Assembly: GCA_021785655.1 (NCBI GenBank) | Contig: JAJYET010000002.1 | Location: 82,391-146,390, forward strand | DNA: 64,000 bases | Reading direction: 5' to 3' | DNA from: a bacterium | GTDB lineage: Bacteria; Chloroflexota; Dormibacteria; Aeolococcales; Bog-877 | Part shown: piece after piece, positions 2,493 to 39,641 of the stretch | How positions within the stretch are numbered: the first letter of the stretch is position 1 | Layout of the letters: the number at the start of each line of letters is the position of its first letter | Notes under the pieces: generated by a model | What the model was told of the DNA's origin: nothing | Seen by the model: only the letters and a program-made list of their open reading frames with translations | Databases searched by the model: none | Program-made: the position numbers and the translations under genes

Positions 2493-4703
2493 TCAGCGCC
2501 AGAGGCTGCGGACGTCGAGGACCAGGTAGCCCGGGGCCGAAGCCACGACAGGCAGGTGCTGGCTGCGGTACCAGGCGAGATTGGCGGCGATCCGGTTGTA
2601 GTCACCCGGCTCGAACTCGACGTACCCGACGCGGTACCGTGCCAGGAGGTAGCCCAGCCGGCAGGGGCCGGAGCCGGGACAGCCGGCGTACATCAGCTGC
2701 ACCGCCCGGTACCGGGCGGCCAGCGGCTGGCCGTAGCTCCAGAGCCAGCCGTAGTAGCCCAGCACCGCGGTGCGCCCGGCGAGCGCGGTGACCGGGTCAT
2801 TGGGCTGGCCCTCGGTCAGGAAGATCGCCTTAGGGCTGGTCCTCCGCTCCACCTCCCTGGCGACCGTTAACTCCGGGGGCCCGGCCAGGGTGGCCGTGGC
2901 ACCGCTGGGCTGGGTCTGGAGGGTGGTGCTCCGCCCCTCCAATCCAGCGAGCTCAGCCAGGACCCCGCTCAGGACCAGGGTCAGGGTGGCGACGGCCGCC
3001 AGAACCCGGAGCCAGGCTCCCCGCGGCACCTGGGTGAGAAGCCAGGCCAGGGGGATGGCGGCCACCAGGTACCAGTAGCTGAGCAACTTGGTGTTGTCCC
3101 AGTTCCAGGGCTGGGTGATGACCAGGTTGGCCAGCAGAAACGCCACCCAGCCCGGCGCCCAGAAGCGGAGGAGCTGGAGGCGTCGCGCCCTGGCCGGGGT
3201 ACGTCCCCGGGCGGCGGCCAGCGTCACCAACCCCACCGCCAGCACCAGGAAGATCCCGGTGTTCGAGAGCCAGAAGCCGAGGAAGGCCCCGTAGAAGGAC
3301 GGCTGCGAAAGAGTCTGCCCCAGGTATCTCAGGATGACGAGGGGGGACGCGCCGGTGAGGTAGAGGGAAGAACAGGCGGCCCCTGCCTGGAGCTGGGTCG
3401 CGGTGCAGGCTGAGGTGGCGTGGGAGAGCCAGCCCAGGTCCAGGGCGGGAAAGAGGTTGGGCCCGAGCGGTCCAGTCGCGGACCCGTGGGGACCGGCGAC
3501 CTCGAAGAAGAGCTGGGGCAGCCCCAGGAGGGCCGCCGGGATGAGGGCGGCGGCCATCCCCCGCCACCACCCGCGGCGCCAGCTCCACCAGAGGGCCGAG
3601 AGCCCCAGGAACAGGTAGCCGAAGGGGTTGAATAGGGGAACGGCCGCGGTGAGGACGCCGGCGGAGATGGCCAGCGGCAGCCGGCGCCTCCTCACCGCCT
3701 CCCAGAGGCAGCTCAGCCCCAGCGCCACCATCCCCATCCCGAAGGCGAAGTCGCGCTGGGGGAGCCAGTAGACCAGGAGGGGCTCGTACCACTGCAGGTC
3801 GGGCAGAGGCGGGTCCAGCTGCTGCTGGCCGTCGTAGAAGCGAGGCAGGTGGGTGAGCTCGGTGGGGATGTGCCCCACGAAGGCCACCACCGCGGAAGGG
3901 GTGGTGATGCTGAGGTGGGTGCAGGCCGCGGAGTCGAACCCCGGGCGGCTGACCGCCAGCTGCTGGCAGCCGTCTCCGTACGCTCCCAAGAACCCCAGGC
4001 CGCCGCCGAAGAGCACCAGTCCGAGGGCGAGCGCACCCGCCGCGGGCCGGCGGGTGACCCTGGTCGCGAGTTGGAAGACGAGGACCATCGCCGCCCAGCC
4101 GACCACGAAGGACGGCATGTCCAGCGCGCCGGCGAGGTTCTGCCCCAGCGCCTCCAGGAGCGCCGGTTGGAAGTCCACCAGGAAGGGGTAGCGGAAGGCG
4201 GTCCCGGCCTCCACACTGTCCCGGGGAGGGAGGTTGTGGCCCAGATGGAAGCTCTGGACATAGCTGGTGTGCACCGACCAGTCACCCCAGAGGTTGGCAG
4301 CCGCCACCAGGGTCCCGTGCGGTCCGACCTGTAGGGCGTGGGCGAAGAGAAACCAGCTGCCCAGCCCGGTGGCCACCACGATCGTCAAGGACCAGCGGAA
4401 GCCGGCCGTGCTGAACTCAGGGCGGAGCCGAGCAAGCAATAGCCGGCGCTTCCAGGGACGGGACTTGGCGCAGGCGAGGGCGGTGATCAAAGCCGGGGGC
4501 AGGAGGGCGGCCGCCGCACCTGGCCCCAGCGCCAGCGCCACGAGGAACGCGAGAAGGGTGGAGCCGACCAATCCCGTCAGTGCCGCCGCGGCCAGCCGCT
4601 CGAAGGGCAGCCACCGCAACCCGATCAGCGAGGTGAGCCCCCAGCCCGCACCGGCGACGAGTAGCCAGTAGGCGGTGAGGGCCGGCCAGCCGGTCAGTAC
4701 CAA
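2493..4703 (-). CDS. large polytopic membrane protein, possible GT-C glycosyltransferase partner of PMT
   Basis: This is a 736-aa ORF with more than 12 predicted hydrophobic helices and a ~150-aa soluble C-terminal domain (YYGWLWSYGQ...). It abuts the PMT gene with a 10-nt overlap. I recognise no confident family. Confidence 0.5.
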   Translation of the reverse strand: MVLTGWPALTAYWLLVAGAGWGLTSLIGLRWLPFERLAAAALTGLVGSTLLAFLVALALGPGAAAALLPPALITALACAKSRPWKRRLLLARLRPEFSTAGFRWSLTIVVATGLGSWFLFAHALQVGPHGTLVAAANLWGDWSVHTSYVQSFHLGHNLPPRDSVEAGTAFRYPFLVDFQPALLEALGQNLAGALDMPSFVVGWAAMVLVFQLATRVTRRPAAGALALGLVLFGGGLGFLGAYGDGCQQLAVSRPGFDSAACTHLSITTPSAVVAFVGHIPTELTHLPRFYDGQQQLDPPLPDLQWYEPLLVYWLPQRDFAFGMGMVALGLSCLWEAVRRRRLPLAISAGVLTAAVPLFNPFGYLFLGLSALWWSWRRGWWRGMAAALIPAALLGLPQLFFEVAGPHGSATGPLGPNLFPALDLGWLSHATSACTATQLQAGAACSSLYLTGASPLVILRYLGQTLSQPSFYGAFLGFWLSNTGIFLVLAVGLVTLAAARGRTPARARRLQLLRFWAPGWVAFLLANLVITQPWNWDNTKLLSYWYLVAAIPLAWLLTQVPRGAWLRVLAAVATLTLVLSGVLAELAGLEGRSTTLQTQPSGATATLAGPPELTVAREVERRTSPKAIFLTEGQPNDPVTALAGRTAVLGYYGWLWSYGQPLAARYRAVQLMYAGCPGSGPCRLGYLLARYRVGYVEFEPGDYNRIAANLAWYRSQHLPVVASAPGYLVLDVRSLWR

Positions 4704-6592
4704 CCGGACACCCAGATGTGCTGGAAGAAGTCCGTCGAGGAGATCGGCTGGCCGGTCCAGAGCGGATAGAAGTAGGCGAAGCAGAGGACCACGGCCAGGA
4801 CCACCGCCCCGCCCACCGGGGCCAGGGAGAGGCCGCCCAGGCGGGCCCGGTCAAGCTGCAGCACCATCCGGGCGCGGAGGAGCCTCGTGCAGAGGTAAGC
4901 CAGGGCCAGGCAGACGAACGGGAGGGCCTCGATGTACTCGTAGAAGAAGAGGATCCGGGACGGCCAGGACCAGAGCAAGAGCCAGTCGAAGAGGTAGGCG
5001 AGGAGGATGAATCCGGCCACCCGGTCGCGGCGCCGGACCAGGAGGTAGAGACACCAGGCGAGGGCCAGGAGCCCCAGCCAGAAGACGGCGGGGTTGCCCA
5101 TGTCGGTGATCCAGGCGTAGTTGGAGACCGTCTGCCCCCCTGCCGTGCTCACCCCGTTGCCGTTGTAGGTCGCATAGAAGAGCACCGGATGGGCGTCCAG
5201 CGGCCAGCTGTAGAAGGGGGAGGCGAAGGGATGGGTGGCCTTGAGGGTGGCCTGGTAGCTCAGGCTCCCCAGGCTGTTCCACTCCACGTCGGCCACAGTC
5301 TGGCCCACATTGAATCCGGTGGGCAGCCAGAAGTCGACCTGCCCGATGTGGAACTCGGAGAGGGGCATGGCCACCGGGAGGCGGCAGACCGAGGCCTTCT
5401 CCACCAGCCCGGTGCAGGTGGCCGTGGGCCCCCCGGGGTTGGCGAAGTTCACATAGAGGGTGTGGGAGATGGTCCAGTACCGGAAGAAGGAGGCGTAGAA
5501 GAGGAACAGGATCACGACCAGGGCGCCGAGGTAGTGCCAGGACCAGTGCAGCTGCCGCACCATGGTGCGCCTTGAGGCCTCCACCGGATCGTCCGGAGCT
5601 GGGGGAAGGATCCACCGGGCCGCCCCGCCCACCCCCCACCGCACCCGCAGCCGGGGCCGGAGCCAGCGCCCGAGGAGCAGGACCACCATGACCGCGACCC
5701 CGGGAACCATGTCTGCTTTGCAGGCCAGCCCGAGCCCCGAGGCGACGGCGGTCAGGTAGAGCGTCCATCGCCACTGGGCCGCGGTCTTGGCGTGCCAATG
5801 CAGGAGGAACATCCAGAAGGCCAACATCACGAAGAAGACCGCGATCGCGTCGATCACCCCGGTGCGCGACTCCACCAGCTCCAGCCCATCCAGGCTGAAG
5901 AAAAGGGCCGCGAGGGTGGGGAAGAGCCGGCTCCGGCGCCAGAGACGGCGAGCGAGGAAGTACAGGACCCCGATCACCAGGCTGCCGAGGATGGCGGACA
6001 TGATGCGCCAGCCCCAGGGGTTGAACCCCAGCCAGCTGATGCCCCCGGCGATGATCAGCTTGGTGAGGGGCGGCTCGGGGTCGAAGTAGTCGATGCCTTT
6101 GAGGTTCTTGAGCGCGTCCACGGGGAAGTAGACCTCGTCGAACACGAACCCACAGGTCTGGCGTTCTGTGTTGTGGGGCCCGACGGGGGCCTGGGTGCAC
6201 CCCGAGGTGTTGAAGGGATAGCCGAGCCCCCACGCCCCCACCCCCAGGACGTCGTGGGTGGGGGTGCGGTGCACCCCGGTCGGAGCGGAGACCGTGCCCG
6301 TCACGCCCACGTGGCCCTGGAGGAAGTCCAGGTAGATGGGACTGGCCAGCCGCACCGCCAACGCGGCCGCGACCAGCACCCCGGCGATGGCGAGATCCCT
6401 CCCATCCACCCCGGTGAGGTCCTGGTGGCGGCGGAGCAGGAGGGAGAAGCCCCAGACCGCCGCCGCCATCACCACCGCCACCAGCGGATTCAGCGGCCAG
6501 TGGAGCAGTACGGCAGCGAACGCGAAGAGCACCGCGGCGGCCAAGGCGTACGGCCACTCCCGCCGTATGGCGGGCCAGTTCGAGAGCGTCAC
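4694..6592 (-). CDS. pmt: dolichyl/polyprenyl-phosphate-mannose protein O-mannosyltransferase (PMT, GT39)
   Basis: The ORF has the PMT loop-1 signature FDEVYF..A...Y.....FDPEPPLTKLIIAGGISWLGFNPWGWR and the following multi-TM core. There is an unusual ~150-aa N-terminal insertion before the DE motif. Confidence 0.7.
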   Translation of the reverse strand: MTLSNWPAIRREWPYALAAAVLFAFAAVLLHWPLNPLVAVVMAAAVWGFSLLLRRHQDLTGVDGRDLAIAGVLVAAALAVRLASPIYLDFLQGHVGVTGTVSAPTGVHRTPTHDVLGVGAWGLGYPFNTSGCTQAPVGPHNTERQTCGFVFDEVYFPVDALKNLKGIDYFDPEPPLTKLIIAGGISWLGFNPWGWRIMSAILGSLVIGVLYFLARRLWRRSRLFPTLAALFFSLDGLELVESRTGVIDAIAVFFVMLAFWMFLLHWHAKTAAQWRWTLYLTAVASGLGLACKADMVPGVAVMVVLLLGRWLRPRLRVRWGVGGAARWILPPAPDDPVEASRRTMVRQLHWSWHYLGALVVILFLFYASFFRYWTISHTLYVNFANPGGPTATCTGLVEKASVCRLPVAMPLSEFHIGQVDFWLPTGFNVGQTVADVEWNSLGSLSYQATLKATHPFASPFYSWPLDAHPVLFYATYNGNGVSTAGGQTVSNYAWITDMGNPAVFWLGLLALAWCLYLLVRRRDRVAGFILLAYLFDWLLLWSWPSRILFFYEYIEALPFVCLALAYLCTRLLRARMVLQLDRARLGGLSLAPVGGAVVLAVVLCFAYFYPLWTGQPISSTDFFQHIWVSGWY

Positions 6593-7104
6593 CTCCGCCG
6601 GCTGGGCCGGGACGCCGCTGCGGGAGGCCGGCGGCGGATCCGCGGGCGCAGCCCCCGGTCCAGCTCATCGGCGCGCCGGACCAGCAGGATGAGGTCCTGA
6701 TCCAGCACCGTACGCCGGCCCAGCTCCCGACCCACCGCCAGCAGCCGTTCGTGGTCCATCTCCACCCGCACGATGCAGACCGGACTCGAGGCGTAGCGCT
6801 TGAGGCTCCCGCTGAGCAGCGAGCGACGGTTGGGGGTGTCGAAGAAGGTCCCCAGGGGCTGGGCCCGGGCCTGGCGGAGGCTCTCGTAGGGCAGGCTGGT
6901 CAGCCGGAACCAGTGACGGATGAGGAGGCCCTCGGGCGTGAGGGAGACATAGTGCCAGCGCTGCCGAAGGTAGAGCCAGCCAAGGATGATGAGGAAGAGG
7001 GCGAGCACCACGAGAAAGCTGGGGTCGAGCCCGTGGTGGCCGTAGATGGTGATGCCCTCCCCCGCCAAGAGCACCACGATGCCGTACGCGAGAACCCACC
7101 ACAT
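6589..7104 (-). CDS. membrane-anchored bacterial PH-domain protein (YdbS/YdbT-like)
   Basis: Two N-terminal TM helices (WWVLAYGIVVLLAG..., LVVLALFLIILGWLYL) are followed by a bPH-like domain (VSLTPEGLLIRHWFRLTSLPYESLRQA...IVRVEMDHERL). I take the start at the internal Met. The upstream 115 codons of the listed ORF are GC-rich junk overlapping mtnP. Confidence 0.5.
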   Translation of the reverse strand: MWWVLAYGIVVLLAGEGITIYGHHGLDPSFLVVLALFLIILGWLYLRQRWHYVSLTPEGLLIRHWFRLTSLPYESLRQARAQPLGTFFDTPNRRSLLSGSLKRYASSPVCIVRVEMDHERLLAVGRELGRRTVLDQDLILLVRRADELDRGLRPRIRRRPPAAASRPSRRR

Positions 7105-7175
7105 CCGCCGCCACAGCTCATACGAGGTGATCAGCGGAAAGCGCGGCTCCGGCTCGGCCGCCGGTTGGCCCCCGC

Positions 7176-7979
7176 TCACTCGGCAGCGTCCTGGGGGAGG
7201 CGCGAGCTGGCGCAGGCACACCCTCTCTCCTGGGGAAGCGCGGCCACCACGTCCACCAAGAGGGAGCGCACCCGATCCACGTTGGCCGCGAACACCCGCA
7301 GGACCTCCTGGTGGCTCACCGGGGCGATGTCCGGCCGGCCCTCCAGCCCGGCGTCGTAGTCGGTCACCAGGGCGATGGACGCGTAGCACATGCCGAGCTC
7401 CCTGGCCAGCGCCACCTCCGGGTACCCGGTCATGCCCACGACCCCCCACCCCATCTGCGAGTACCAGGCCGACTCTGCCCGGGTTCCGAACCGCGGACCC
7501 TGGATCACGACCATGGTCCGATGCCGGTGGACCGTCCTCCCGGACTTGGTGGCCCTGGACTCGGCCAGGTCGCCGAGCTCAGGGCAGTACGGGTCGGCCG
7601 CCGCCAGGTGGGCCACCTCCGGCCCCTCCCAGAAGGTGTCCGACCGGCCCCAGGTCCGGTCCACGTACTGGCCGGGGATGACGACGTCCCCGGGGGCCAG
7701 CTCGGCCTGCAGCGAGCCGACCGCGGCCGGACCCAGCACCCTGGTCACGCCCATCTGGCTCATCGCATGGAGGTTGGCGCGGAAGTTGATCCGGTGGGGC
7801 GGGATGGTGTGGTGGCGGCCATGCCGAGGCATGAACACCACCTGGCGGGTGCCGATCCGGCCCACGAAGGCGGCGTCGCTGGGCGCCCCGTAGGGGGTTT
7901 CGACCCGGACCTCCTCGGCCGCCTCCAAGAGCTCATACAGCCCCGACCCGCCGAATATCCCCACCACGTCCTCGGTCAT
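7176..7979 (-). CDS. mtnP: S-methyl-5'-thioadenosine phosphorylase
   Basis: It begins VGIFGGSGLYEL and contains the purine-nucleoside phosphorylase family-2 core (VVFMPRHGRHH, GMTGYPEVALARELGMCYASIALVTDYD). Confidence 0.85.
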   Translation of the reverse strand: MTEDVVGIFGGSGLYELLEAAEEVRVETPYGAPSDAAFVGRIGTRQVVFMPRHGRHHTIPPHRINFRANLHAMSQMGVTRVLGPAAVGSLQAELAPGDVVIPGQYVDRTWGRSDTFWEGPEVAHLAAADPYCPELGDLAESRATKSGRTVHRHRTMVVIQGPRFGTRAESAWYSQMGWGVVGMTGYPEVALARELGMCYASIALVTDYDAGLEGRPDIAPVSHQEVLRVFAANVDRVRSLLVDVVAALPQERGCACASSRLPQDAAE

Positions 7980-8054: not shown

Positions 8055-8819
8055 TCACCTCCGGTGACTGGGACAGCTGGGGTCGCGCGGGAAGTGGATC
8101 TCCCGCCAGCGCATGGCACCGGCGTCGAGGTCCCAGAGCCGTCCCTCGAGGTTAGCCGGGCCGATGCCCGTGAGCCGAATGAGTGCCAGAAGAGCCTGCA
8201 TCGCCCCCACCACCCCGGCCACCGGCCCGAGGATCCCCGCCGTCCGGCAGTCCGCCGCGGCGGCCGGGGGCGCGGTGAACAGGCAGCGGTAACAGGGCCC
8301 GCCCGGTCCCACTGCCAGCACCTGCCCCCGCAGGCCCGTTACCCCGGCGATCACCAGCTGGCGCCCGCCACCGACCGCCCAGTCGTTGAGCGCGAACTTG
8401 TTGGCCGGATCATCGGTGCATTCCAGGGTCAGGTCCGCACCCTCAAGAGCCGGGGCGACGGCCATCGGAGCCGCCTTGGCGGTCCGGGGCTCCACCACGA
8501 CCAGCTCATTTAGCGAGCGAAGACGCTCCGCCAGCCGCTCCGCCTTGGAGGCACCGATGTCGGCGGCGGTGAACTGCACCTGGCGGTGGAGGTTGTCCAG
8601 CGCCACCACGTCCGGATCGAAGAGCAGGACCCGGCCCACCCCCGCCCCCACGAGGTAGGGGGCTGCCGCCGAGCCCAGCGCCCCGCACCCCACTACCGCC
8701 ACCGTGGCCCCTCGCAGCCGGAGCTGTGCTGCCTCATCCAACTGGGGCAGCAGCAGTTGCCGGCTGTAGCGCTCCACCTCCAAATCAGACAGGCCGTCCG
8801 CCGGCCCCTCGGGCCTCAC
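8055..8819 (-). CDS. E1-like adenylyltransferase of the ThiF/MoeB family (no rhodanese domain)
   Basis: The ERYSRQLLL start and the glycine-rich nucleotide loop VAVVGCGALGS are present, plus a CYRC motif. Its GTG start overlaps the TGA of the upstream dsrH-like gene (GTGA), indicating translational coupling. Confidence 0.75.
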   Translation of the reverse strand: MRPEGPADGLSDLEVERYSRQLLLPQLDEAAQLRLRGATVAVVGCGALGSAAAPYLVGAGVGRVLLFDPDVVALDNLHRQVQFTAADIGASKAERLAERLRSLNELVVVEPRTAKAAPMAVAPALEGADLTLECTDDPANKFALNDWAVGGGRQLVIAGVTGLRGQVLAVGPGGPCYRCLFTAPPAAAADCRTAGILGPVAGVVGAMQALLALIRLTGIGPANLEGRLWDLDAGAMRWREIHFPRDPSCPSHRR

Positions 8820-9112
8820 CAGGAGACCACCGCCTCGGCGGCCAGCAACAGCTCCAGCAGCGCCTCGTAGTCCACAAGGGCCCACCGCTCGGTGGCAGCC
8901 CGCTCCTCGGCGTCGGCGCGCACCGCCAGGATGGGCATCGTCTCACCGCTGACCGGGTGTCCCACCAGACCTTGGATGCTCTCCTCGGACTCCGCCACTG
9001 CGGCTCCGGCCAGGACCACCAGCGGCCGACGCCCGAGCCTCAGGGCATAGGCCACTGACTGCCAGCCCCGGGGATCCCCGGCCCGGGTGATCAGGTGCAG
9101 CTCTATACCCAC
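8816..9112 (-). CDS. DsrH/TusB-like sulfur relay protein
   Basis: This 98-aa protein begins IELHLITRAG.. and ends ..AEAVVSW, resembling TusB (MLHTLHRSPW...SQMAW). It is the third gene of a dsrE-F-H-ordered operon. Confidence 0.6.
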   Translation of the reverse strand: MGIELHLITRAGDPRGWQSVAYALRLGRRPLVVLAGAAVAESEESIQGLVGHPVSGETMPILAVRADAEERAATERWALVDYEALLELLLAAEAVVSW

Positions 9113-9113
9113 C

Positions 9114-9470
9114 TCAGACCACTAGCCAGTGTTGGGCCTGCCGGCATCGGGCCTCGATCGCGTCCACGCCCAGAGTCCGCACCTGCGGCCGCAGGCGGCG
9201 CAGGAGAGCCTGGTCCTCCCCGGAATCCACCCGGACCAGAATCTCGACGCCGTCGTCGGCCAGTAGGGCCTCCATCTGTTCGGTCACCTCATCCGGCCCC
9301 GGGGCACCTGTCATGTCAGGCTGAGTGGCCAACTCGCGAGCCGCGCCCTCCAGCACCAGGACGGCGTCGCAGCCGCCCAGCGGGAGCGCTAGAGCGAGCG
9401 CCACCGCCAACCTTCCCTCCGACCCCCCACTTCGGGCCACCAGCGCCACCTCCCGAGGCGTCACCGGCAT
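9114..9470 (-). CDS. DsrF/TusC-like sulfur relay protein
   Basis: About 118 aa, with a VALVARSGGSEGRLAVALALALPLGGCDAVLVLEGAA core of TusC/DsrF type. The start was chosen at the Met just before this conserved core. Confidence 0.5.
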   Translation of the reverse strand: MPVTPREVALVARSGGSEGRLAVALALALPLGGCDAVLVLEGAARELATQPDMTGAPGPDEVTEQMEALLADDGVEILVRVDSGEDQALLRRLRPQVRTLGVDAIEARCRQAQHWLVV

Positions 9471-9778
9471 TGCAGCACCCGGTCCGCCTCTCGGCACCAG
9501 AGCGCGAGGTCCCTCAGGCTGCCCCTGTAGACCCGCGGGTCCGGCGCCTCACCCCCGCGCCTCCATCGCCAGTCGGCGTCGCAGTGGGCCACCGAGGCAC
9601 CAGAGCCAGCGACCTGCCCGGCCGCCAGGACCCCTTCTCCCAAGAGGAAGACCCTGACCTCGTGGTCGGCCGCCACGGCGGCGTCGGCCAGTCCCGAGAC
9701 CAACCGAGCCGCTGGTGAGTCCGGCCCCGAGCCCAGGACCAGGACCAGCCTGCGGGGGGTGGAGCTGATTTTGGCCAC
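9461..9778 (-). CDS. DsrE/TusD-like sulfur relay protein
   Basis: LVLVLGSGPDSPAARL...DHEVRVFLLGEGVLAA...AHCDADW parallels TusD (AIVVTGPAYG...GHELSSVFFYREGV...NICVAA), including the active-site Cys. The listed ORF overlaps the tRNA, so I trimmed the start to the GTG at 9778. Confidence 0.55.
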   Translation of the reverse strand: MAKISSTPRRLVLVLGSGPDSPAARLVSGLADAAVAADHEVRVFLLGEGVLAAGQVAGSGASVAHCDADWRWRRGGEAPDPRVYRGSLRDLALWCREADRVLQCR

Positions 9779-9868
9779 GCCGGTCAGCGTAGCTGAGTCT
9801 GGAAGCGGTGAGCCCGGGACCCGCGGCCAAGCCCGACTTCCGCTACGCTGCCCACTCAGCGGCACTCC

Positions 9869-9951
9869 GCCGGGGTGGCGTAATGGCAGCCGCAGCGGTC
9901 TTAAAAACCGCCGGACGCAAGTCCGTATGGGTTCGAGTCCCATCCCCGGCA
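9869..9951 (+). tRNA. tRNA-Leu (anticodon UAA)
   Basis: The cloverleaf was folded by eye: acceptor GCCGGGG/CCCCGGC, D arm, anticodon stem GCGGT/ACCGC with loop CTTAAAA (UAA), a long variable arm typical of Leu, and a T arm GGGTTCGAGTCCC. CCA is not encoded. Confidence 0.8.
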
Positions 9952-10183
9952 GCAGCCTTTCGAGATCGGAACGGCCCATGAGTGGCCTTCCTGCCAGACG
10001 CCACTCGGCGCATGGAGTGCCCCTGATGCCAACCCGGGCGGGAGACCGGCCAGGGTCCCTGCCCGGAACTCCATCGCGGGCGCGCCCACCCCCGGCAGGC
10101 GACCGGGGCCGCGGCTATGAGGGGCCCACTACCCCTTCAGGGCGCCGTGTGGGCCGTGCAGTGCATCGCCGACTGGACCACCA

Positions 10184-10459
10184 GTGCCAACTCTCCATTC
10201 GCCGCGCTCGGGTGCGATCTGTTCGCTCTCCGCCTCCGGAGGGACTCCGCGCTGGCCTTCAGCAACGGCCTCACATACGGGACGTGACCTGGGACAGGAG
10301 CACAACACCCAGGTCCTGCGGCGCTGGCTGCTGTCCGTGCCGGCCCGGCTGGTGCACGGCGGTCGGCGCTGGTACCTGCGCCTGGCCCGGGGGATGTCCC
10401 ACAAGCAGGAGTTCTGGGCTCTGCACCGCTACCTCGCCGCCCTGGGTGCCGGAGGATAG
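10184..10459 (+). pseudogene. C-terminal fragment of a DDE transposase (IS4/IS1380-type C-terminal motif)
   Basis: The 91-aa ORF ends ..QVLRRWLLSVPARLVHGGRRWYLRLARGMSHKQEFWALHRYLAALG. This resembles the conserved extreme C-terminus of IS1380/IS4-type transposases. No upstream catalytic domain is present, so it is a truncated remnant. Confidence 0.35.
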
Positions 10460-10777
10460 CTCCCTCCGGGCGGTGGCGACCGGCCTGTTGGCTACCTGGG
10501 ATGGAGCACGCCCATCACCCCTGCCGGAGTCCGTCTTCAGGCCAGCGGGCGGGCCCTGCCTCCTGCCGCGTGGCCCGCCAGCCGCCGATGACCGCCGTCC
10601 GGTCCTCCCGAGCCGCTCCCTTTGCCCCCCCACCGGCCGCCGCCACCTTACTCACCGGTCGAGGTCAGATGCCTCCGGTCAGGTGCTTACTTGCAGGTTC
10701 CCCATCCACACGGAGGGAGAGGTGGACGCCACCTCTCCCCCTGGCTGCCGCTGGACCGCTGCTGTGGTGCCGGACCC

Positions 10778-11278
10778 CTACGGCGCCACCTGCACTTGCG
10801 CGGGGAGCGCAGACAATATACTCTCGCCGAACAACGGCCCGAGGCTGTTATCTGGGTAGACGTAGTGCCCAGCGCTCGAGGGCACCGTGATGTCGACCGG
10901 GCCTGCGCCCGTCTGCACGTTGTCGATGATCAAGGTGTCGCCGCTGACGGTGTACGTGGTATTGCCGGCGTTGTGGATGTCGCCGTTCGGAGCTATCCCG
11001 GCATTGTGGATACAGTCGTCCTCTTCGTAGTCCACCGTGCCACCTGAGCTGCTCGTCGGCGTCAGCGCCGCCCAGAACCAAAAGCCACCACCGGAGCCAT
11101 TGGCTTTGGCGATGGGGATGATGCTGCCTAAGCTGTGCGTGTTAGCGGAGATCTCGATCTGGTAAGAAGCCCCTGGCCCGTAGTCGGCGAAAGCGGCGCT
11201 TGCCGTCGCCACGAGCACTCCGGCAGCGAGCCCAAAACTCAGGCCCAAGACGGCTACCACCTTGCTCAGCGTTCTCAT
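10778..11278 (-). CDS. secreted hypothetical protein (signal peptide, internal IHNAG repeats)
   Basis: The signal peptide MRTLSKVVAVLGLSFGLAAGVLVATASAAFA precedes a Gly/Ser/Thr-rich mature part with a duplicated (I/D)HNAG motif. The gene is visibly lower in G+C than its surroundings. Confidence 0.5.
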   Translation of the reverse strand: MRTLSKVVAVLGLSFGLAAGVLVATASAAFADYGPGASYQIEISANTHSLGSIIPIAKANGSGGGFWFWAALTPTSSSGGTVDYEEDDCIHNAGIAPNGDIHNAGNTTYTVSGDTLIIDNVQTGAGPVDITVPSSAGHYVYPDNSLGPLFGESILSALPAQVQVAP

Positions 11279-11447
11279 GGTTATCCTCACTTTTGTTCTC
11301 TGATCCCGTTGATGTTCCTGCACAGTCCGGTCGTTCACCCCACTTGAAGCCGTCAGGTTGATTCGCGTCTTTCTGTGCGTCCCTCCCCTGCGCGTCTCTG
11401 GCAGCTCCGAGGAACACACGGGGCGCCGCCACCTTTGTGTCTGCACC

Positions 11448-12380
11448 TTAGCGGATGACTTCCGTGGCATACGCCGCCATCGTCCGGCCGACGTCAGCGG
11501 GATCGAGCAGCCCCAGCTCATCGACGGGCAGTTTGCCCAACTCACGGAAGTACCCGACATAGACGTCGGGAGTTAGCGTGCAGATGAACTTGGCTGCTTC
11601 GCCGAAGGGGTTGGCGAAGGTGTGCGGTGTGCCGGAGGGGACTGTGATGCAGGATCCCGCTTCGACGTCGACACTGTCGGCTCCGGAGGTGAATGTGAGT
11701 TTTCCCTCGGTCACGATGAAGGTCTCGTCGTGATCACGGTGAATGTGCTGGGGCGGGCCACCCGGAACCGGCGGCACAATCGCCTCGATGAGGCCCAGCC
11801 GATGCTGGGTGTGGGTACCGTCTTCGATGATGCGGCAGCGGATTGGCCCGCCACCTGACTGCTCGCCGTCGTTGGGTCCGACGACAAAGATGGACATGGC
11901 GTTCTCCTTGGCAGCTGGGGATTCAAAACTGCCGCTATACGGCTGGTGGTTACTTGAGTGCAACTCGTAGGAGGCGCGGACCAATCCCAGGACCATGTCC
12001 TGCTCGGCGCTGTCGCGAGGGGCGTAGATCATGACGATGTTCCCGGGCGCTTGGCCGGTACGGGCGAGGACGTGAGGTTCGGCCCATCCGGCATGTTCGG
12101 CGGCAGCGGCTAGCGGGAGCGGCAAGGCCGCGTGCAGACTGAAGTCACCTTGGGCGTGCACGTGGCAGAACTCTCGGCCGTTCAACATCAGTGCCCGGGC
12201 GCCCTCCACCGAGATCACCGATGGCCCTGCGACCACGGAGGGCCATGTCAGTGCCTCGGCGAGAATGGCGTCGACGTAACGGGGGTCGTCGGGTTGCTGG
12301 TCCAGTTGGGTGTGCGGGATCTCGGTGGTGGTACGCGGCCTGGGCCCGGCCCGCCTCGGAAGCTGCGGTAGTCCGTCCAT
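11448..12380 (-). CDS. two-domain protein: uncharacterised N-terminal domain fused to a C-terminal cupin
   Basis: The C-terminal ~150 aa have a cupin_2 signature (HIHRDHDETFIVTEGKLTFT...VPSGTPHTF). The N-terminal ~160 aa are unassigned. There is no stop between the halves. An internal Met at 11897 could alternatively start a stand-alone cupin. Confidence 0.5.
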   Translation of the reverse strand: MDGLPQLPRRAGPRPRTTTEIPHTQLDQQPDDPRYVDAILAEALTWPSVVAGPSVISVEGARALMLNGREFCHVHAQGDFSLHAALPLPLAAAAEHAGWAEPHVLARTGQAPGNIVMIYAPRDSAEQDMVLGLVRASYELHSSNHQPYSGSFESPAAKENAMSIFVVGPNDGEQSGGGPIRCRIIEDGTHTQHRLGLIEAIVPPVPGGPPQHIHRDHDETFIVTEGKLTFTSGADSVDVEAGSCITVPSGTPHTFANPFGEAAKFICTLTPDVYVGYFRELGKLPVDELGLLDPADVGRTMAAYATEVIR

Positions 12381-12381
12381 C

Positions 12382-12831
12382 TCAGCCTCCGAACCAGAAG
12401 AGCTCGATCGGGATCCCGTCGGGGTCGCGGAACGTCAGCTGAGCGCGCCGAACCGGCTCGGTGGTCTCGTACAGCGCTCCGTGCTCGACACCCATGGCCT
12501 CGAGGCGAGTAGCCCACTGATCGATATCTTCCCGGCTGGCGACCTGGATGGCGAAGTGATCGAGCCCGGTGCGGAGCTCGCTGAACATGGTGGCGTCGGC
12601 ACCGGGGTGGTGGTCGAGGCCCATGAACAGCCCGGTGCCCGGACGCGTCATTACCACGGCGTAGCCGTCGCCGGTTCCATGCGGTTCGACGAAGGCTCGG
12701 ACGAGTCCCAGAACCTCGGTGTACCAGGCCTCGCTGGCCACGATGTCGCGGACCGTGAGGCCAAGGTGTTGGATTCCGGTCAGCGCCGGAGCTGTTTGGG
12801 TGGATGGGTAGGTTTCGAGCGCGGTGGTCAT
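12382..12831 (-). CDS. VOC/glyoxalase-bleomycin resistance family protein
   Basis: At 149 aa, it has GIQHLGLTVRDIVASEAWYTEVLGL and later HFAIQVASREDIDQWATRL, the paired beta-alpha-beta-beta-beta modules of the VOC fold. Confidence 0.65.
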   Translation of the reverse strand: MTTALETYPSTQTAPALTGIQHLGLTVRDIVASEAWYTEVLGLVRAFVEPHGTGDGYAVVMTRPGTGLFMGLDHHPGADATMFSELRTGLDHFAIQVASREDIDQWATRLEAMGVEHGALYETTEPVRRAQLTFRDPDGIPIELFWFGG

Positions 12832-12966
12832 GGTGGCCCTCCTAAATGGGTGTGTGTGGTCTGTTTCGCCTCGAGTAGACTTCGACTCTCAGTATGCGAC
12901 TCCTATCTCATTGTGCGACTGGCGTATCATAGACCCCAGTCTCTGGCTTGTCAAGGAGGAGCGGCG

Positions 12967-13584
12967 ATGGAACGTCCGTACGATGTAGGCGAGCTGTCCG
13001 GCCCCAGGGCGCGCACCCTGCGTCTCCTGAGGGAAGCGGCGCATGAGCTGCTGCGCACCGGCCGTCCACTAACGGTCCCCGCCGCAGCAGAGCTCGCGGG
13101 GGTGTCTCGGGCAACCGCCTACCGCTACTTCCCGACCAGAGACGCCGTGGTCCTCCACGCGACCATGTCCCTGGCCGACTTCCCGCTCGAAGACACCACT
13201 TGGGCCCCGCCGGCGGATACATCACCCGGCGAGATCAGCGCCAGGGCGGCCGAGCTCGTGCGGGTGACCGCCGCATGGGCTTTCGAGCATGAGACCGAGC
13301 TGCGCACGATGCTCCGCTTCTCGCTGGAACCAGGAAGGGAGCACATGACACCCCGCCGAGGACTGACTAACCGCGGGCACTGGATCGCAGCCCTCCTCGA
13401 GGGCCTGCCCAGTGATGTTCCCGCAGATGCTCGCAGCCGCCTCGCGAAGGCGCTCGTCCCCTTGTTCGGATCCGACGCCGTCGTTTGGACCACCGACATG
13501 GCCAACCTATCTCGCGAGCAGGCAATCGAGCTCCTCGTGTGGATAGCGCAGGTCCTCGTCAGAGCCACTCTGGCCGGCTGGTAA
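12967..13584 (+). CDS. TetR-family transcriptional regulator
   Basis: The ATG at 12967 is preceded by AAGGAGGA. The N-terminal HTH reads AAELAGVSRATAYRYFPTRDAV. The gene is divergent from the VOC gene. Confidence 0.75.
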   Translation: MERPYDVGELSGPRARTLRLLREAAHELLRTGRPLTVPAAAELAGVSRATAYRYFPTRDAVVLHATMSLADFPLEDTTWAPPADTSPGEISARAAELVRVTAAWAFEHETELRTMLRFSLEPGREHMTPRRGLTNRGHWIAALLEGLPSDVPADARSRLAKALVPLFGSDAVVWTTDMANLSREQAIELLVWIAQVLVRATLAGW

Positions 13585-13773
13585 CACCCCAACATCCGGC
13601 GGCGGCCCGAATGGAGTCGACATCGCCCACCGCCTCTGCCTCCGCTGCCGGACGTTCGCAGCCCAGTCGATCGGCCTGGTGCTGCTCCGGGCTCCGCAAC
13701 CCAAGGTCCGGCACCGGAGATCACCCCTGCAGAGGGCGGCCCCAAGGAACGGCGCGATCTCCAAGAGTGGGTC

Positions 13774-14298
13774 TTGGCACATCGGAAGAGCCTTGGCGAT
13801 CACTTCCTGGAGGAACGTGGCCAGTCCAGCTTGACGCCATCTTGCTCGCCGCCGTACACAGCACCCACCGGGTCCGGCCCCCGGAAAGTGCCAGAGTGCC
13901 GCAGGGGGTCCCAAGTGCCACGAGTCACGCGGCCGGCTGCTCCGCCTCCCAGCCCCTGGGACCTGGACCGCTGCTCCGCTGCCCAGCTCGGCCAGCGGTG
14001 GGCCGACTTGCAAGCCTTCGCCAGCTGGCTCGAGGCCCAGGGCATCAAGGTCCCCGCCTCCTGGCACACCCACGGCTGGGTGGCATTACAGGCTTGGAAA
14101 GCCCGGGCCTACGCCACTGACACCCACCCCGGTAGGCCGCCGACTGGGCCCTCGGCCTGGCCCCGCTCCTGCGCGACTGGGAGCCCCTCCTCGCCACCCA
14201 GGGCAAGCACCCCCCACCGGGATGTTCCTTGGGACGACCCCGTGCGGGTCCCGGAGTTCGCGGAGTTCGTCAAGGCCCAGGTGGCTGCCCGGGCCTAG
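13774..14298 (+). pseudogene. hypothetical ORF, possible remnant of a mobile-element gene
   Basis: This 174-aa ORF has a low-complexity Pro/Ser-rich content and no recognisable domain. It lies between the TetR gene and the VirD4-like fragment. Whether it is coding is uncertain. Confidence 0.2.
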
Positions 14299-14417
14299 CG
14301 GGACGCCAAGCCTGGCTCCTCCTGATGGCCCGCAGCCTGCACTTCCTCAGCATCCTGGTCTCCGAGCTCGCCAGCCGCTGGCGCGAGGTCCTGGCGGCCA
14401 TCTGGCTCGCTTGAGCG

Positions 14418-14819
14418 GTGATCTCCATCTTCGCCGGCGGCGGGCCGGAGGAGGACATGCCCTACACCGTCATCTGGCTCATCGCCGGCCTCACCGGCTG
14501 GTGGCTCGTCACGTGCTACGCTCCACCCCCGCTGCGACCCCGGCACCAGCTCCCCTCCGGGCCCCCCGTCGGGTATCCCCCGCCCTTCCGGATCCTCCTC
14601 AGCTGGGATGACCGGGTCTGGATCTCGGCCCCGCCGCAGATGGCGGCCCTGGTCCTAGGGCCGCCCTGCTCCGGCAAGACCAGAGGGATGGTCATCCCCA
14701 ACGTCGCCGCCTGGCCCGGCCCGGTGCTGGGCACCTCCACCCGTCGCGACGTGCGGGACGCCACCGTGGGCTGGCGGGGCCGCCAGCGGAAGATGTCAAG
14801 GGGTTTGAGACAGGCGTAG
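14418..14819 (+). pseudogene. N-terminal fragment of a type IV coupling protein (VirD4/TraG/TcpA-like)
   Basis: A TM helix (PYTVIWLIAGLTGWWLVTCYA) is followed by a Walker-A region, LVLGPPCSGKTRGMVIPNVAAWPGPVLGTSTRRDV. This matches the VirD4 pattern (..APTRSGKGVGVVIPTLLTWPGS.VV.D.KGE). The ORF stops after 133 aa, whereas full-length proteins are about 600 aa. Confidence 0.45.
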
Positions 14820-14879
14820 TGGCCAAAGTTTGTGGTCAGACGACCTCCTGAGTGGGTCGGTTGATCCAGGCGGTGGCGG

Positions 14880-15542
14880 TCACCGGTCCTCGTCGGGGGA
14901 AGGGGGCGCTGCGGCGGAGTGGCGGTGGGAGATTGGCATGTTCAGGTTGAAATGCACTCCTGCCATCCGGATGGAGAAGCAGATCGCGGCCGCCAAGACG
15001 GCGATGGCGCCGCTGTAGAAGTGGAGGCCCAGCGCCACCGCCGTGAGCGTGGCGCCGCAGGCCGCCGGGACGGCATAGAGGCCGCTCGACAGAACCGTCG
15101 GCACCTTGCGGATGACCACATCCCTGACCGTGCCTCCCCCCACGCCGGTGATGGTCCCGAGGACGACCGACTGGAAGGGGCCCAGGTGGGCGGCGAACGC
15201 GGTGGTGGTGCCCGTCACACAGAAGAGCGCGAGGCCGGCGGCGTCAAAGACGGTGATCGACCTTTCCAGGCGAAGCCAGAGCTGGCGGGCCATGAAGGCC
15301 AGGACACCGGCGCCGGCACCGACCGCCAGGTAGCGCCAGTCCCGGAACGCCGCGGGGGGCAGCGAGCCGATGAGGATGTCGCGGATGATGCCCCCTCCGA
15401 GGGCGGTGATCACCGCCAGAGCCACGACGCCAACGATGTCCAAGTTCTCGGATTCCATCGCGGTGAGTGCACCGTTCAGGCCGAAAACGAAGGTGCCCAG
15501 GAGCTCGAGCACGAGCTGGAGGGTGGAGCCTGTGCTCGACAC
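14880..15542 (-). CDS. trimeric intracellular cation channel family protein (UPF0126/YadS-like)
   Basis: At 220 aa, it has two repeated halves, each with a glycine-rich GGG(I/T)(I/V)RD motif (ALGGGIIRDILIG and GVGGGTVRDVVI). Confidence 0.65.
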   Translation of the reverse strand: MSSTGSTLQLVLELLGTFVFGLNGALTAMESENLDIVGVVALAVITALGGGIIRDILIGSLPPAAFRDWRYLAVGAGAGVLAFMARQLWLRLERSITVFDAAGLALFCVTGTTTAFAAHLGPFQSVVLGTITGVGGGTVRDVVIRKVPTVLSSGLYAVPAACGATLTAVALGLHFYSGAIAVLAAAICFSIRMAGVHFNLNMPISHRHSAAAPPSPDEDR

Positions 15543-38439: not shown

Positions 38440-38904
38440 TCACTTGGCGGTGGCCCGCCTCCGCAGCCCCCGGCGCCGCCCCGCCGCTTCCGGAGCTTCG
38501 ACCGGCTCCTCCGCCGCCACCTCATCGGTCGCCGCGCCGGCCGCGACGGGCTTCGAGGGGCCTTCCCGACGCTCCCGTATCCGGGCCTGCTTGCCCACCT
38601 TCCCCCGCAGATAGTAGAGCTTGGCGCGGTGCACCACGCCATGCCTGACCACCTCGATCTTGGCGAGTCGGGGGGAGTGGATGAGGAAGGTGCGCTCCAC
38701 CCCCACCCCGTGGGCGGTGCGGCGCACGATCACCGACTCGCGGACGCCACCACCCTTCAGCCCGATGACCACCCCCTCGAAAACCTGGATCCGCTCGCGG
38801 GTGCCCTCGACCACCTTGGCGTGGACCCTGACCGTGTCCCCGGGCCGGAGCTCCGGGACGTCGGATCTCAGCTGCTCCTCCTCGAGCAGGTCGATGATGT
38901 TCAC
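38440..38904 (-). CDS. rplS: 50S ribosomal protein L19
   Basis: [13 protein letters not shown]...[26 protein letters not shown] is canonical L19. It has a basic C-terminal tail. Confidence 0.9.
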
Positions 38905-39641
38905 TGCGCACCTCCACCAGCCTCGCCGCCCGTCCGGGCGGCGGGTCTCAAATGCCCTGTCGTGTCCGCCTTGAGGAGCAGGTCCGGGCGGATCCGGGAG
39001 GCCCGCTCCAGGGCGGCCCGGCGCCGCCAGGCGGTGATCTTTGCGTGATCGCCGCTGCGAAGCACTGATGGTACCGAAAGTCCCTCGAAGACTGCCGGCC
39101 GCGTGTACTGGGGATACTCCGGGAGCCCCTCCGCGAAGCTCTCGTCGAGGCTTGAGTCAGGGTCCCCGAGCGTCCCCGGCAGGTGCCGGGCCACGGCCTC
39201 GACCAGGGCCATGGCCGCGAGCTCCCCGCCGGCCAGCACGAAGTCCCCGACCGAGACCTCCTCCAGGCCGAGGCCGTCCACCACCCGCTGATCGACCCCC
39301 TCGTACCGGCCACAGACCAGCAGCAAGGACTCCTCCCGGGCCAGCTCCAGCACCAGGCCGGCATCCAAGCGCCTGCCTCCGGCGGACATCAGGATGGGGC
39401 GGGATGGAGCGGATGCCAGCAGGCCGCGCACCGCTGCGAACAGCGGCTCGGGTCGCAGCACCATCCCCGGCCCTCCTCCGAAGGGGGCGTCGTCCACCTG
39501 GCGGCGCGAACCTAGCCCCCAGTTTCTGAGATCGTGAGTCTCCAAGTGGACAACTCCGGTGGCCAGTGCCCGGCCCACCACGCCGGCCCCCAGCGGCCCG
39601 GGAAAGACCTCCGGGAAGAGGGTGAGGACATCAACCCGCAT
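38901..39641 (-). CDS. trmD: tRNA (guanine37-N1)-methyltransferase
   Basis: [11 protein letters not shown]..., GGGPGMV and the SPOUT knot region [13 protein letters not shown] are present. Confidence 0.9.

Follow-up and report, generated by a model that had tools for sequence, protein, structure and literature searches.

A minus-strand array of four tightly packed open reading frames (ORFs; 9778-8055) in the window studied here, a 64-kb stretch of Dormibacteria DNA with a G+C content of 71%, places three small proteins of the DsrE/DsrF/DsrH type directly before an E1-like adenylyltransferase of the ThiF/MoeB type. We call the genes g1, g2, g3 (together, the trio) and E1, and give all coordinates as positions in the window. 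E1s of the MoeZ/MoeBR/MOCS3/Uba4 group are fused to a rhodanese domain, but the E1 of this window has none: it is a 254-amino-acid (aa) protein made up of the ThiF/MoeB core only. Our best explanation, to which we give about an even chance, is that the trio acts as the persulfide donor that replaces the missing rhodanese. It starts from three direct observations: the gene families, a conserved cysteine in g1 and the fact that the four genes are kept together as one unit. Judged from sequence, the trio beside E1 suggests an undescribed route of sulfur into cofactor synthesis; we found no DsrEFH-ThiF or LarE-ThiF operon described in the searchable literature. The four genes are as follows.

9461..9778, minus strand: g1, GTG start, 105 aa, DsrE/TusD-like, contains VAHCDADWRWRRG
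9114..9470, minus strand: g2, ATG start, 118 aa, DsrE/DsrF-fold protein
8816..9112, minus strand: g3, GTG start, 98 aa, probable DsrH/TusB-like protein, N-terminus (V)GIELHLITRAG, C-terminus AEAVVSW
8055..8819, minus strand: E1, GTG start, 254 aa, ThiF/MoeB-type, with ERYSRQLLL, VAVVGCGALG and CYRC

A first-pass annotation of this DNA had listed four minus-strand genes and quoted motifs from three of them, and all of these are where it placed them. Its description of the genes as overlapping by 2-10 nucleotides (nt) is accurate for two junctions only. The stop of g1 overlaps the ATG of g2 by 10 nt (ATGCCGGTGA) and the TGA of g3 overlaps the GTG of E1 by 4 nt (GTGA), the latter as annotated, but g2 and g3 are separated by a 1-nt spacer. 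The E1 start at 8819 is backed by gene calls of 254-255 aa in relatives.

In the mechanism that we propose, g1, g2 and g3 would form a complex like TusBCD or DsrEFH, with the persulfide carried on Cys66 of g1. E1 would adenylate the C-terminal glycine of a ThiS/MoaD/TtuB-type carrier, presumably encoded elsewhere in the genome. The DsrEFH-like complex, in place of a rhodanese, would then deliver sulfane sulfur to convert the acyl-adenylate to a thiocarboxylate, and the sulfur may pass from Cys66 to the adenylated carrier by way of the conserved cysteine in the DCRTAG motif of E1. The thiocarboxylate would feed at least one of three products: molybdopterin, the LarE step of the nickel-pincer nucleotide cofactor, or thiamin.

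Families of the four proteins

E1 gave a match to the Pfam ThiF profile (PF00899) with E 2e-59, spanning positions 1-237 of the 238 in the profile. Its closest solved relatives were E. coli ThiF (1zfn, 1.6e-42, with 241 residues aligned) and MoeB (1jw9, 1.4e-38). It stayed below the NCBIfam cut-offs for ThiF (TIGR02356, 187 vs 275 bits), MoeB (PRK05690, 190 vs 266; TIGR02355, 148 vs 377) and MoeZ (152 vs 647), and likewise missed the UbaA equivalog cut-off. The nucleotide loop GCGALG is present, and so is the cysteine equivalent to ThiF Cys184 (in DCRTAG). Of the zinc motifs, the first is CYRC and the second, at the C-terminus (8055-8090), is CPSH rather than CxxC, so that the zinc site would be Cys3His. 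The second motif is also CxxH in the other canonical Dormibacterota E1s that we examined; elsewhere among relatives it is CPAC (locus L020), CPDC (in the TusA-linked E1s described below) or CxxC (L068). An anti-phage E1 system was considered as well and rejected, since the Cap2-like 6A-MBL model gave 52 bits against a cut-off of 320.

Early searches of PDB with single sequences and narrow profiles of g1-g3 returned nothing relevant, and the link of these proteins to DsrE/F/H emerged only through wider profiles and predicted structures. For g1, the Pfam DsrE profile (PF02635) was passed at E 5e-6 and 27 bits (cut-off 22.7), over the N-terminal part only, whereas the TusD equivalog TIGR03012 was failed at 14.7 bits (cut-off 89). 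We therefore treat g1 as a member of the superfamily and not as a TusD equivalog. A family profile built from divergent homologues of g1 matched DsrE (2hy5_A, E 1e-3) and YchN (E 6e-3), and in this profile match the g1 cysteine was aligned with a YchN cysteine. An hhalign comparison of g1 with Allochromatium vinosum DsrE (E 6e-5) aligned Cys66 with Cys78 of DsrE; the ends of the DsrE sequence used agree with the 2hy5_A fragments. The annotation had pointed to a conserved cysteine in its DsrE/TusD-like protein, and this residue, in the motif C[EDG]ADxRWR, proved invariant in seven divergent homologues. It is the single invariant cysteine of the trio. In DsrEFH and TusBCD, Cys78 of DsrE/TusD is the persulfide-bearing residue (PMC3397948).

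The g2 protein of the window had no sequence match in Pfam, NCBIfam or PDB. Since TusC-specific NCBIfam models did not match it either, we assign it at the level of superfamily membership only. Its AlphaFold2 model, with a predicted local distance difference test (pLDDT) score of 73.6, gave YchN as the top Foldseek match (E 2.9e-5, template modeling (TM) score 0.75). DsrE, two Sulfolobus DsrE/DsrF-like proteins (including SSO1126) and Syntrophomonas DsrE were further top matches. The top six were all DsrE/DsrF/YchN-family structures, with DsrF, DsrH and TusB among the lower matches. A wider g2 family profile matched YchN over its full length (E 2.7e-4), and 10 of 19 family members matched PF02635 on their own, the best at 6e-6. 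There is no invariant cysteine in the g2 family, and g2 is probably a structural subunit like DsrF/TusC.

The g3 protein is assigned as DsrH/TusB-like with moderate confidence. It matched the NCBIfam TusB model TIGR03011 in its C-terminal half at E 0.076 and 13.2 bits (cut-off 49.2), and 3 of 11 family members matched Pfam DsrH (PF04077) weakly, the best at E 0.032. The g3 family profile had no match among PDB sequences. TusB (2d1p_C) was the top Foldseek match of its AlphaFold2 model (pLDDT 72.6), with E 0.024, probability 0.99 and TM 0.50, and DsrH (2hy5_C) came third. Alignment with E. coli TusB by hhalign covered the C-terminal 43 columns, the part where TusB/DsrH have a (V/I)DY...W motif, including a shared terminal Trp (E 0.008, probability 5%); this Trp is invariant in the family. 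The window g3 contains no cysteine at all and so has no equivalent of DsrH Cys20. Taken together, the hidden Markov model (HMM) searches bore out the family calls of the first-pass annotation for E1 and g1; the call for g2 stands at superfamily level, by profiles and fold, and that for g3 is weak but consistent.

The two known complexes of this kind are alpha2-beta2-gamma2 heterohexamers: TusBCD is the tRNA 2-thiouridine relay of E. coli, and DsrEFH takes part in the sulfur oxidation of A. vinosum. The array resembles them in having three adjacent small genes assigned, in the case of g3 only probably, to the DsrE/DsrF/DsrH fold family, in the alignment of the g1 cysteine with Cys78 of TusD/DsrE and apparently in the conserved Trp that ends g3, and its gene order is the E-F-H order of dsr. 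It differs in that the trio is very divergent, with only g1 above a curated threshold, and in that TusA, TusE/DsrC, MnmA and DsrAB are not nearby and g3 lacks the Cys20 equivalent. Searches of the window and the related loci gave no Dsr genes, DsrAB and DsrC included. The E1 neighbor belongs to neither known system.

Conservation of the unit and partners of related E1s

A scan for the g1 motif in one genome per GTDB species yielded 35 loci, nearly all from Candidatus Dormibacterota, and E1 homologues with 49-82% identity are labelled Candidatus Dormibacteria in NCBI records. In a tblastn map, g1-g2-g3-E1 were contiguous and collinear in 56 of the 57 loci mapped. The first-pass annotation had left conservation of the neighborhood to be compared across relatives, and among the 35 loci, each from a different GTDB species, 34 have the four-gene order. 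Protein identity among relatives went down to about 46-47% for E1, 39-47% for g1 and 40% for g3. Because all four genes are conserved as proteins and in the same order, they are real genes and not chance ORFs. The g2 family is small (5.8 billion proteins contain 13 clusters of it, and 8 matches came from searching 1.84 billion representatives exhaustively by HMM) and occurs essentially only in the context of the trio and E1. The g3 family comprises 9 clusters among the same 5.8 billion proteins.

Most of these loci share a longer block, in which the four genes are preceded by a divergent tRNA-Leu(UAA) and followed often by NadA, usually by S-methyl-5'-thioadenosine phosphorylase (MTAP), and by a 196-aa protein and a PMT-family mannosyltransferase. 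Upstream of g1, the window contains the following features.

9869-9951, plus strand: tRNA-Leu(taa), divergent from g1 and 90 nt away
9779..9868, no strand: intergenic region between g1 and tRNA-Leu(UAA), 90 nt, divergent, presumed promoter of the array

The tRNA is the one that the annotation had placed next to the locus. Of 22 canonical loci scanned, 21 have it upstream in divergent orientation; in the other, L031, the ARAGORN call for the tRNA at this position was a different one. NadA lies directly after E1 in L016, and most Dormibacterota loci have a fitting gap of about 1 kb there. NadA and MTAP vary between loci while the four-gene order is constant.

The strongest point for a functional unit comes from L020, L021 and L057, the only locus type found with the four genes outside the tRNA-to-PMT block. 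Here only the four genes stay together; all flanks differ, with an Rrf2 regulator upstream. Since the flanks have changed wholly, the four genes move as a unit. Downstream at these loci (among them L020, 3620-10801, which is the same as L057) there is a CoxSLM-like molybdenum hydroxylase cluster (Fer2, MoCoBD and FAD domains) with genes for a CoxD-like AAA protein and a CoxE-like VWA protein.

Two other kinds of partner precede related E1s. In L022 (4795-5870), which belongs to another E1 group than the canonical loci, and in L058 (4795-5858) and L059 (4795-5846), an E1 of about 280 aa, 45-50% identical to that of the window, comes after a TusA-like gene of 69 aa with the motif CP[ML]T; the stop of this gene overlaps the start of E1. 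Upstream is a PALP (cysteine synthase-like) gene, and a gene for a hexapeptide transferase follows at 0-1.2 kb downstream. None of the three loci showed a CysO/ThiS-like carrier. Rhodanese-less E1s have been reported as always accompanied by SirA/TusA in sulfate-assimilation neighborhoods, with SirA predicted to take the rhodanese role (Iyer, Burroughs and Aravind 2006, PMC1779556), and TusA is required for activities dependent on the molybdenum cofactor (Moco) in E. coli (PMC3831636). The first-pass annotation had described persulfide relays and E1 pathways as normally separate routes of sulfur delivery, which these precedents show to be overstated. The window array is like the SirA/TusA-accompanied E1s in having a rhodanese-less ThiF/MoeB-type E1 beside a separate gene for a cysteine-bearing carrier. 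It is unlike them in that the partner is a three-subunit DsrEFH-like set and not a single-domain TusA, and in having none of the ThiS/MoaD protein, JAB peptidase and sulfate-assimilation genes of the published loci (PMC1779556).

The second partner is LarE. When metagenomes were scanned with P0091, an E1 of 51% identity, L068 and a set of loci represented by L060 came up. In L060-L066 and L092, LarE lies directly before E1 (TIGR00268, 305 bits in L060, cut-off 150). In L060 (3955-5756), L064 (2945-4756) and L066, a g3-family ORF of 70-75 aa ending in VVW comes before LarE and overlaps its start. Gene callers missed this short ORF; it was confirmed in L060 and L064 (hhalign E 2.6e-6 for L064), and in L066 by tblastn. 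Genes like that for the 196-aa protein, together with PMT, follow E1 in L060, L062, L063 and L065, which makes this region syntenic with the window. In L068 (855-4762; Joint Genome Institute contig Ga0209471_1000012), the order is Rrf2, a further E1 (E1'), g1, g2, g3, LarE (TIGR00268, 285 bits, cut-off 150) and E1. The identity of its g2 and g3 was established by hhalign (E 8e-11 and 1e-11). Both E1s of L068, which flank the trio and LarE, are MoeB-like and pass the MoeB subfamily cut-off.

The LarEs of L068 and of the L060-type loci carry a CxxC...C motif. This motif marks the [4Fe-4S] class of LarE, to which IscS donates sulfur in vitro; a TtuA/TtuB-like mechanism has been proposed for the class, and its physiological donor is not established (PMC9283937). 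With LarE between trio members and E1, L068, L060 and L064 recall the TtuA-TtuB-TtuC system, in which a thiocarboxylate made by an E1 serves a [4Fe-4S] PP-loop enzyme. The resemblance stops there, as the window has no LarE or TtuA, no TtuB-like carrier was seen at the trio loci, and the link is one of gene neighborhood only. That related E1s have TusA or LarE at the same upstream position fits a persulfide relay serving E1.

Weighing the readings

The proposal that the trio replaces the rhodanese of E1 would keep the chemistry of MoeZ/MoeBR/MOCS3/Uba4, with the same adenylation core and the same persulfide attack on the acyl-adenylate to give a thiocarboxylate. What differs is the donor, which would be a separate heteromeric complex of unrelated fold in place of a fused rhodanese, and the window E1 is far below the MoeZ cut-off. 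The annotation had reasoned from translational coupling to a hybrid relay. Part of this stands, because the block is conserved across the phylum and related E1s have other sulfur partners, but the overlap itself is unspecific and much of the conservation is shared synteny.

Several results weigh against the proposal. Downstream of E1 lie, in order, MTAP (NCBIfam NF005876, 331 bits, above cut-off), the 196-aa protein, PMT and a 736-aa protein; the junctions among these genes, which are unrelated to the sulfur module, overlap by 4, 4 and 10 nt. Since unrelated neighbors overlap in the same way, as a local style, a stop/start overlap says little about function. For the most part, the conservation reflects synteny that extends over the longer block, which takes in tRNA-Leu, NadA, MTAP, the 196-aa protein and PMT as well as the four genes. 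In L035 (from the SPRUCE 50 metagenome-assembled genome; 1975-3224), g1-g3 are kept while most of E1 is gone, and a C-terminal remnant of it continues into NadA in the same frame; either a true deletion or an assembly error may explain this. No GG-terminated ThiS/MoaD-like carrier was found in the window, where the annotation had also seen none, or at any trio locus, the only hits being C-terminal pieces of larger proteins. The same scan did recover ThiS and MoaD beside distant E1s (L094, L099); the genes for MoaD and MoeB commonly lie apart (PMC1779556). A Pfam scan of about 40 window ORFs found no gene for a cysteine desulfurase, TusA, TusE/DsrC, MnmA/TtuA, ThiG, MoaE or Lar proteins. The g3 protein falls below every curated family threshold. 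Finally, neighbor-joining of the E1s supported the canonical Dormibacterota group and the TusA-linked group at 100% bootstrap each and L020 with L068 and the L060-type loci at 62%, but a single clade of all partner-coupled E1s received 28%, so common ancestry of the coupling is not established.

The main rival builds on several of these points. It holds that the trio and E1 are neighbors only: E1 would be an ordinary MoeB/ThiF supplied by other donors, the trio would serve a TusBCD-like tRNA 2-thiouridine relay or a YchN-like function, and their adjacency would be inherited. A tRNA-to-PMT array that is syntenic across the phylum and tightly packed throughout, the persistence of the trio in L035 and the lack of a carrier or desulfurase nearby are all as this rival would have them. 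It does not fit L020, L021 and L057, which keep just the four genes in wholly changed flanks, nor the constancy of the four-gene order against the variable presence of MTAP and NadA. In L068 and the L060-type loci, genes of the trio are mixed in with those for LarE and E1. Moreover, TusA, TusE and MnmA were absent from the window ORFs and from the called genes of the related trio loci, so that the partners of a tRNA relay are not beside the trio in any locus. We consider inherited adjacency fairly unlikely.

A different possibility is that the trio and E1 are dedicated to [4Fe-4S] LarE, supplying the thiocarboxylation of the pyridinium dicarboxylate precursor of the nickel-pincer nucleotide cofactor much as TtuB/TtuC feed the cluster of TtuA, with larE having moved elsewhere in the genome in the lineage of the window. 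The placement of LarE between the trio and E1 in L068 argues for this, as do the L060 and L064 order of short g3-family ORF, LarE and E1, the syntenic genes that follow it, and the CxxC...C class of these LarEs. NadA, which makes the nicotinate precursor, also stands directly after E1 in L016, in the position of the 1-kb gap of most Dormibacterota loci, but NadA is a general NAD gene. Against a dedicated supply, LarE is missing from the 64-kb window and from L001-L059, the 8.7 kb of L068 examined has no LarB, LarC or LarA near LarE, and the trio and E1 persist in all canonical loci without an adjacent LarE. We regard an exclusive role in LarE supply as distinctly improbable.

Equally improbable, in our view, is a module that belongs to Moco synthesis, in which E1 would be a MoeB acting on MoaD and the trio would give the sulfur that makes the MoaD thiocarboxylate or sulfurates molybdenum hydroxylases. 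MoeB models were the best NCBIfam matches of E1, both E1s of L068 score above the MoeB subfamily cut-off, the unit lies directly upstream of the CoxSLM-like cluster with its CoxD- and CoxE-like genes in L020/L057, and the need for TusA in Moco-dependent activities of E. coli is a precedent. The window E1, however, does not reach the MoeB cut-offs, and its match to E. coli ThiF is slightly better than that to MoeB. Rfam searches found no Moco riboswitch (or TPP or other riboswitch) in 9779..9868 upstream of g1, even at E<=1, and there were no moa/moe genes among the window ORFs scanned. The adjacency to a molybdenum enzyme was seen in one lineage only.

For the trio as donor to E1, the clients may be more than one, and the pointers diverge. 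The slightly better score of the window E1 against E. coli ThiF than against MoeB points to thiamin, the L020 context and the MoeB-like scores point to Moco, and L068, the L060-type loci and the NadA neighbor point to LarE and the nickel-pincer cofactor. A bolder version, speculative and on balance unlikely, is that a DsrEFH/TusBCD-type carrier is the physiological donor of the rhodanese-less E1 and that the two jointly are the natural supply for [4Fe-4S] LarE, and perhaps for Moco, in Dormibacterota. In its radical variant, E1 would work directly with the DsrEFH-like complex and no ubiquitin-like carrier would take part.

If the trio does serve E1, it would join rhodanese and TusA as a third kind of persulfide donor in E1 chemistry. 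This would bear on two persisting questions: the sulfane sulfur source of rhodanese-less E1s, and what feeds cluster-dependent LarE in vivo. It would also give a probable role to three small families so far labelled hypothetical, with no Pfam assignment, in an uncultured soil-bacterial phylum. The module is a compact, phylum-wide four-gene candidate that is experimentally tractable in vitro.

Flanking DNA

MTAP was rejected as a part of the module because it is absent in L018, L032, L038, L043, L051, L053 and L020. A functional link to tRNA-Leu(UAA) was also rejected: it is a conserved syntenic neighbor only, several species have mobile or variable genes separating it from the unit, and L020/L057 have no tRNA there. 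In some species the tRNA site has taken up integrases, RtcB or a beta-lactamase.

The 196-aa and 736-aa proteins, for which no family match was found, flank PMT in the window (2493-7179). The three genes are conserved together across Dormibacterota, and their stops and starts overlap. Beyond tRNA-Leu(UAA), the region at 10000-14900 has a G+C fraction of 0.66-0.67 compared with about 0.71 for the window, and contains a TetR regulator, a glyoxalase, a cupin/luciferase-domain protein and a fragment matching a type IV secretion coupling protein. As relatives carry integrases and RtcB, or a beta-lactamase, at the site flanking this tRNA, the tRNA-Leu(UAA) flank looks like a variable integration site. 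Farther along the window, ARAGORN called a 94-nt tRNA-Pro(cgg) on the minus strand (39419-39512) inside a long ORF (38901-39641); the call is absent from Rfam at the gathering threshold and is probably false.

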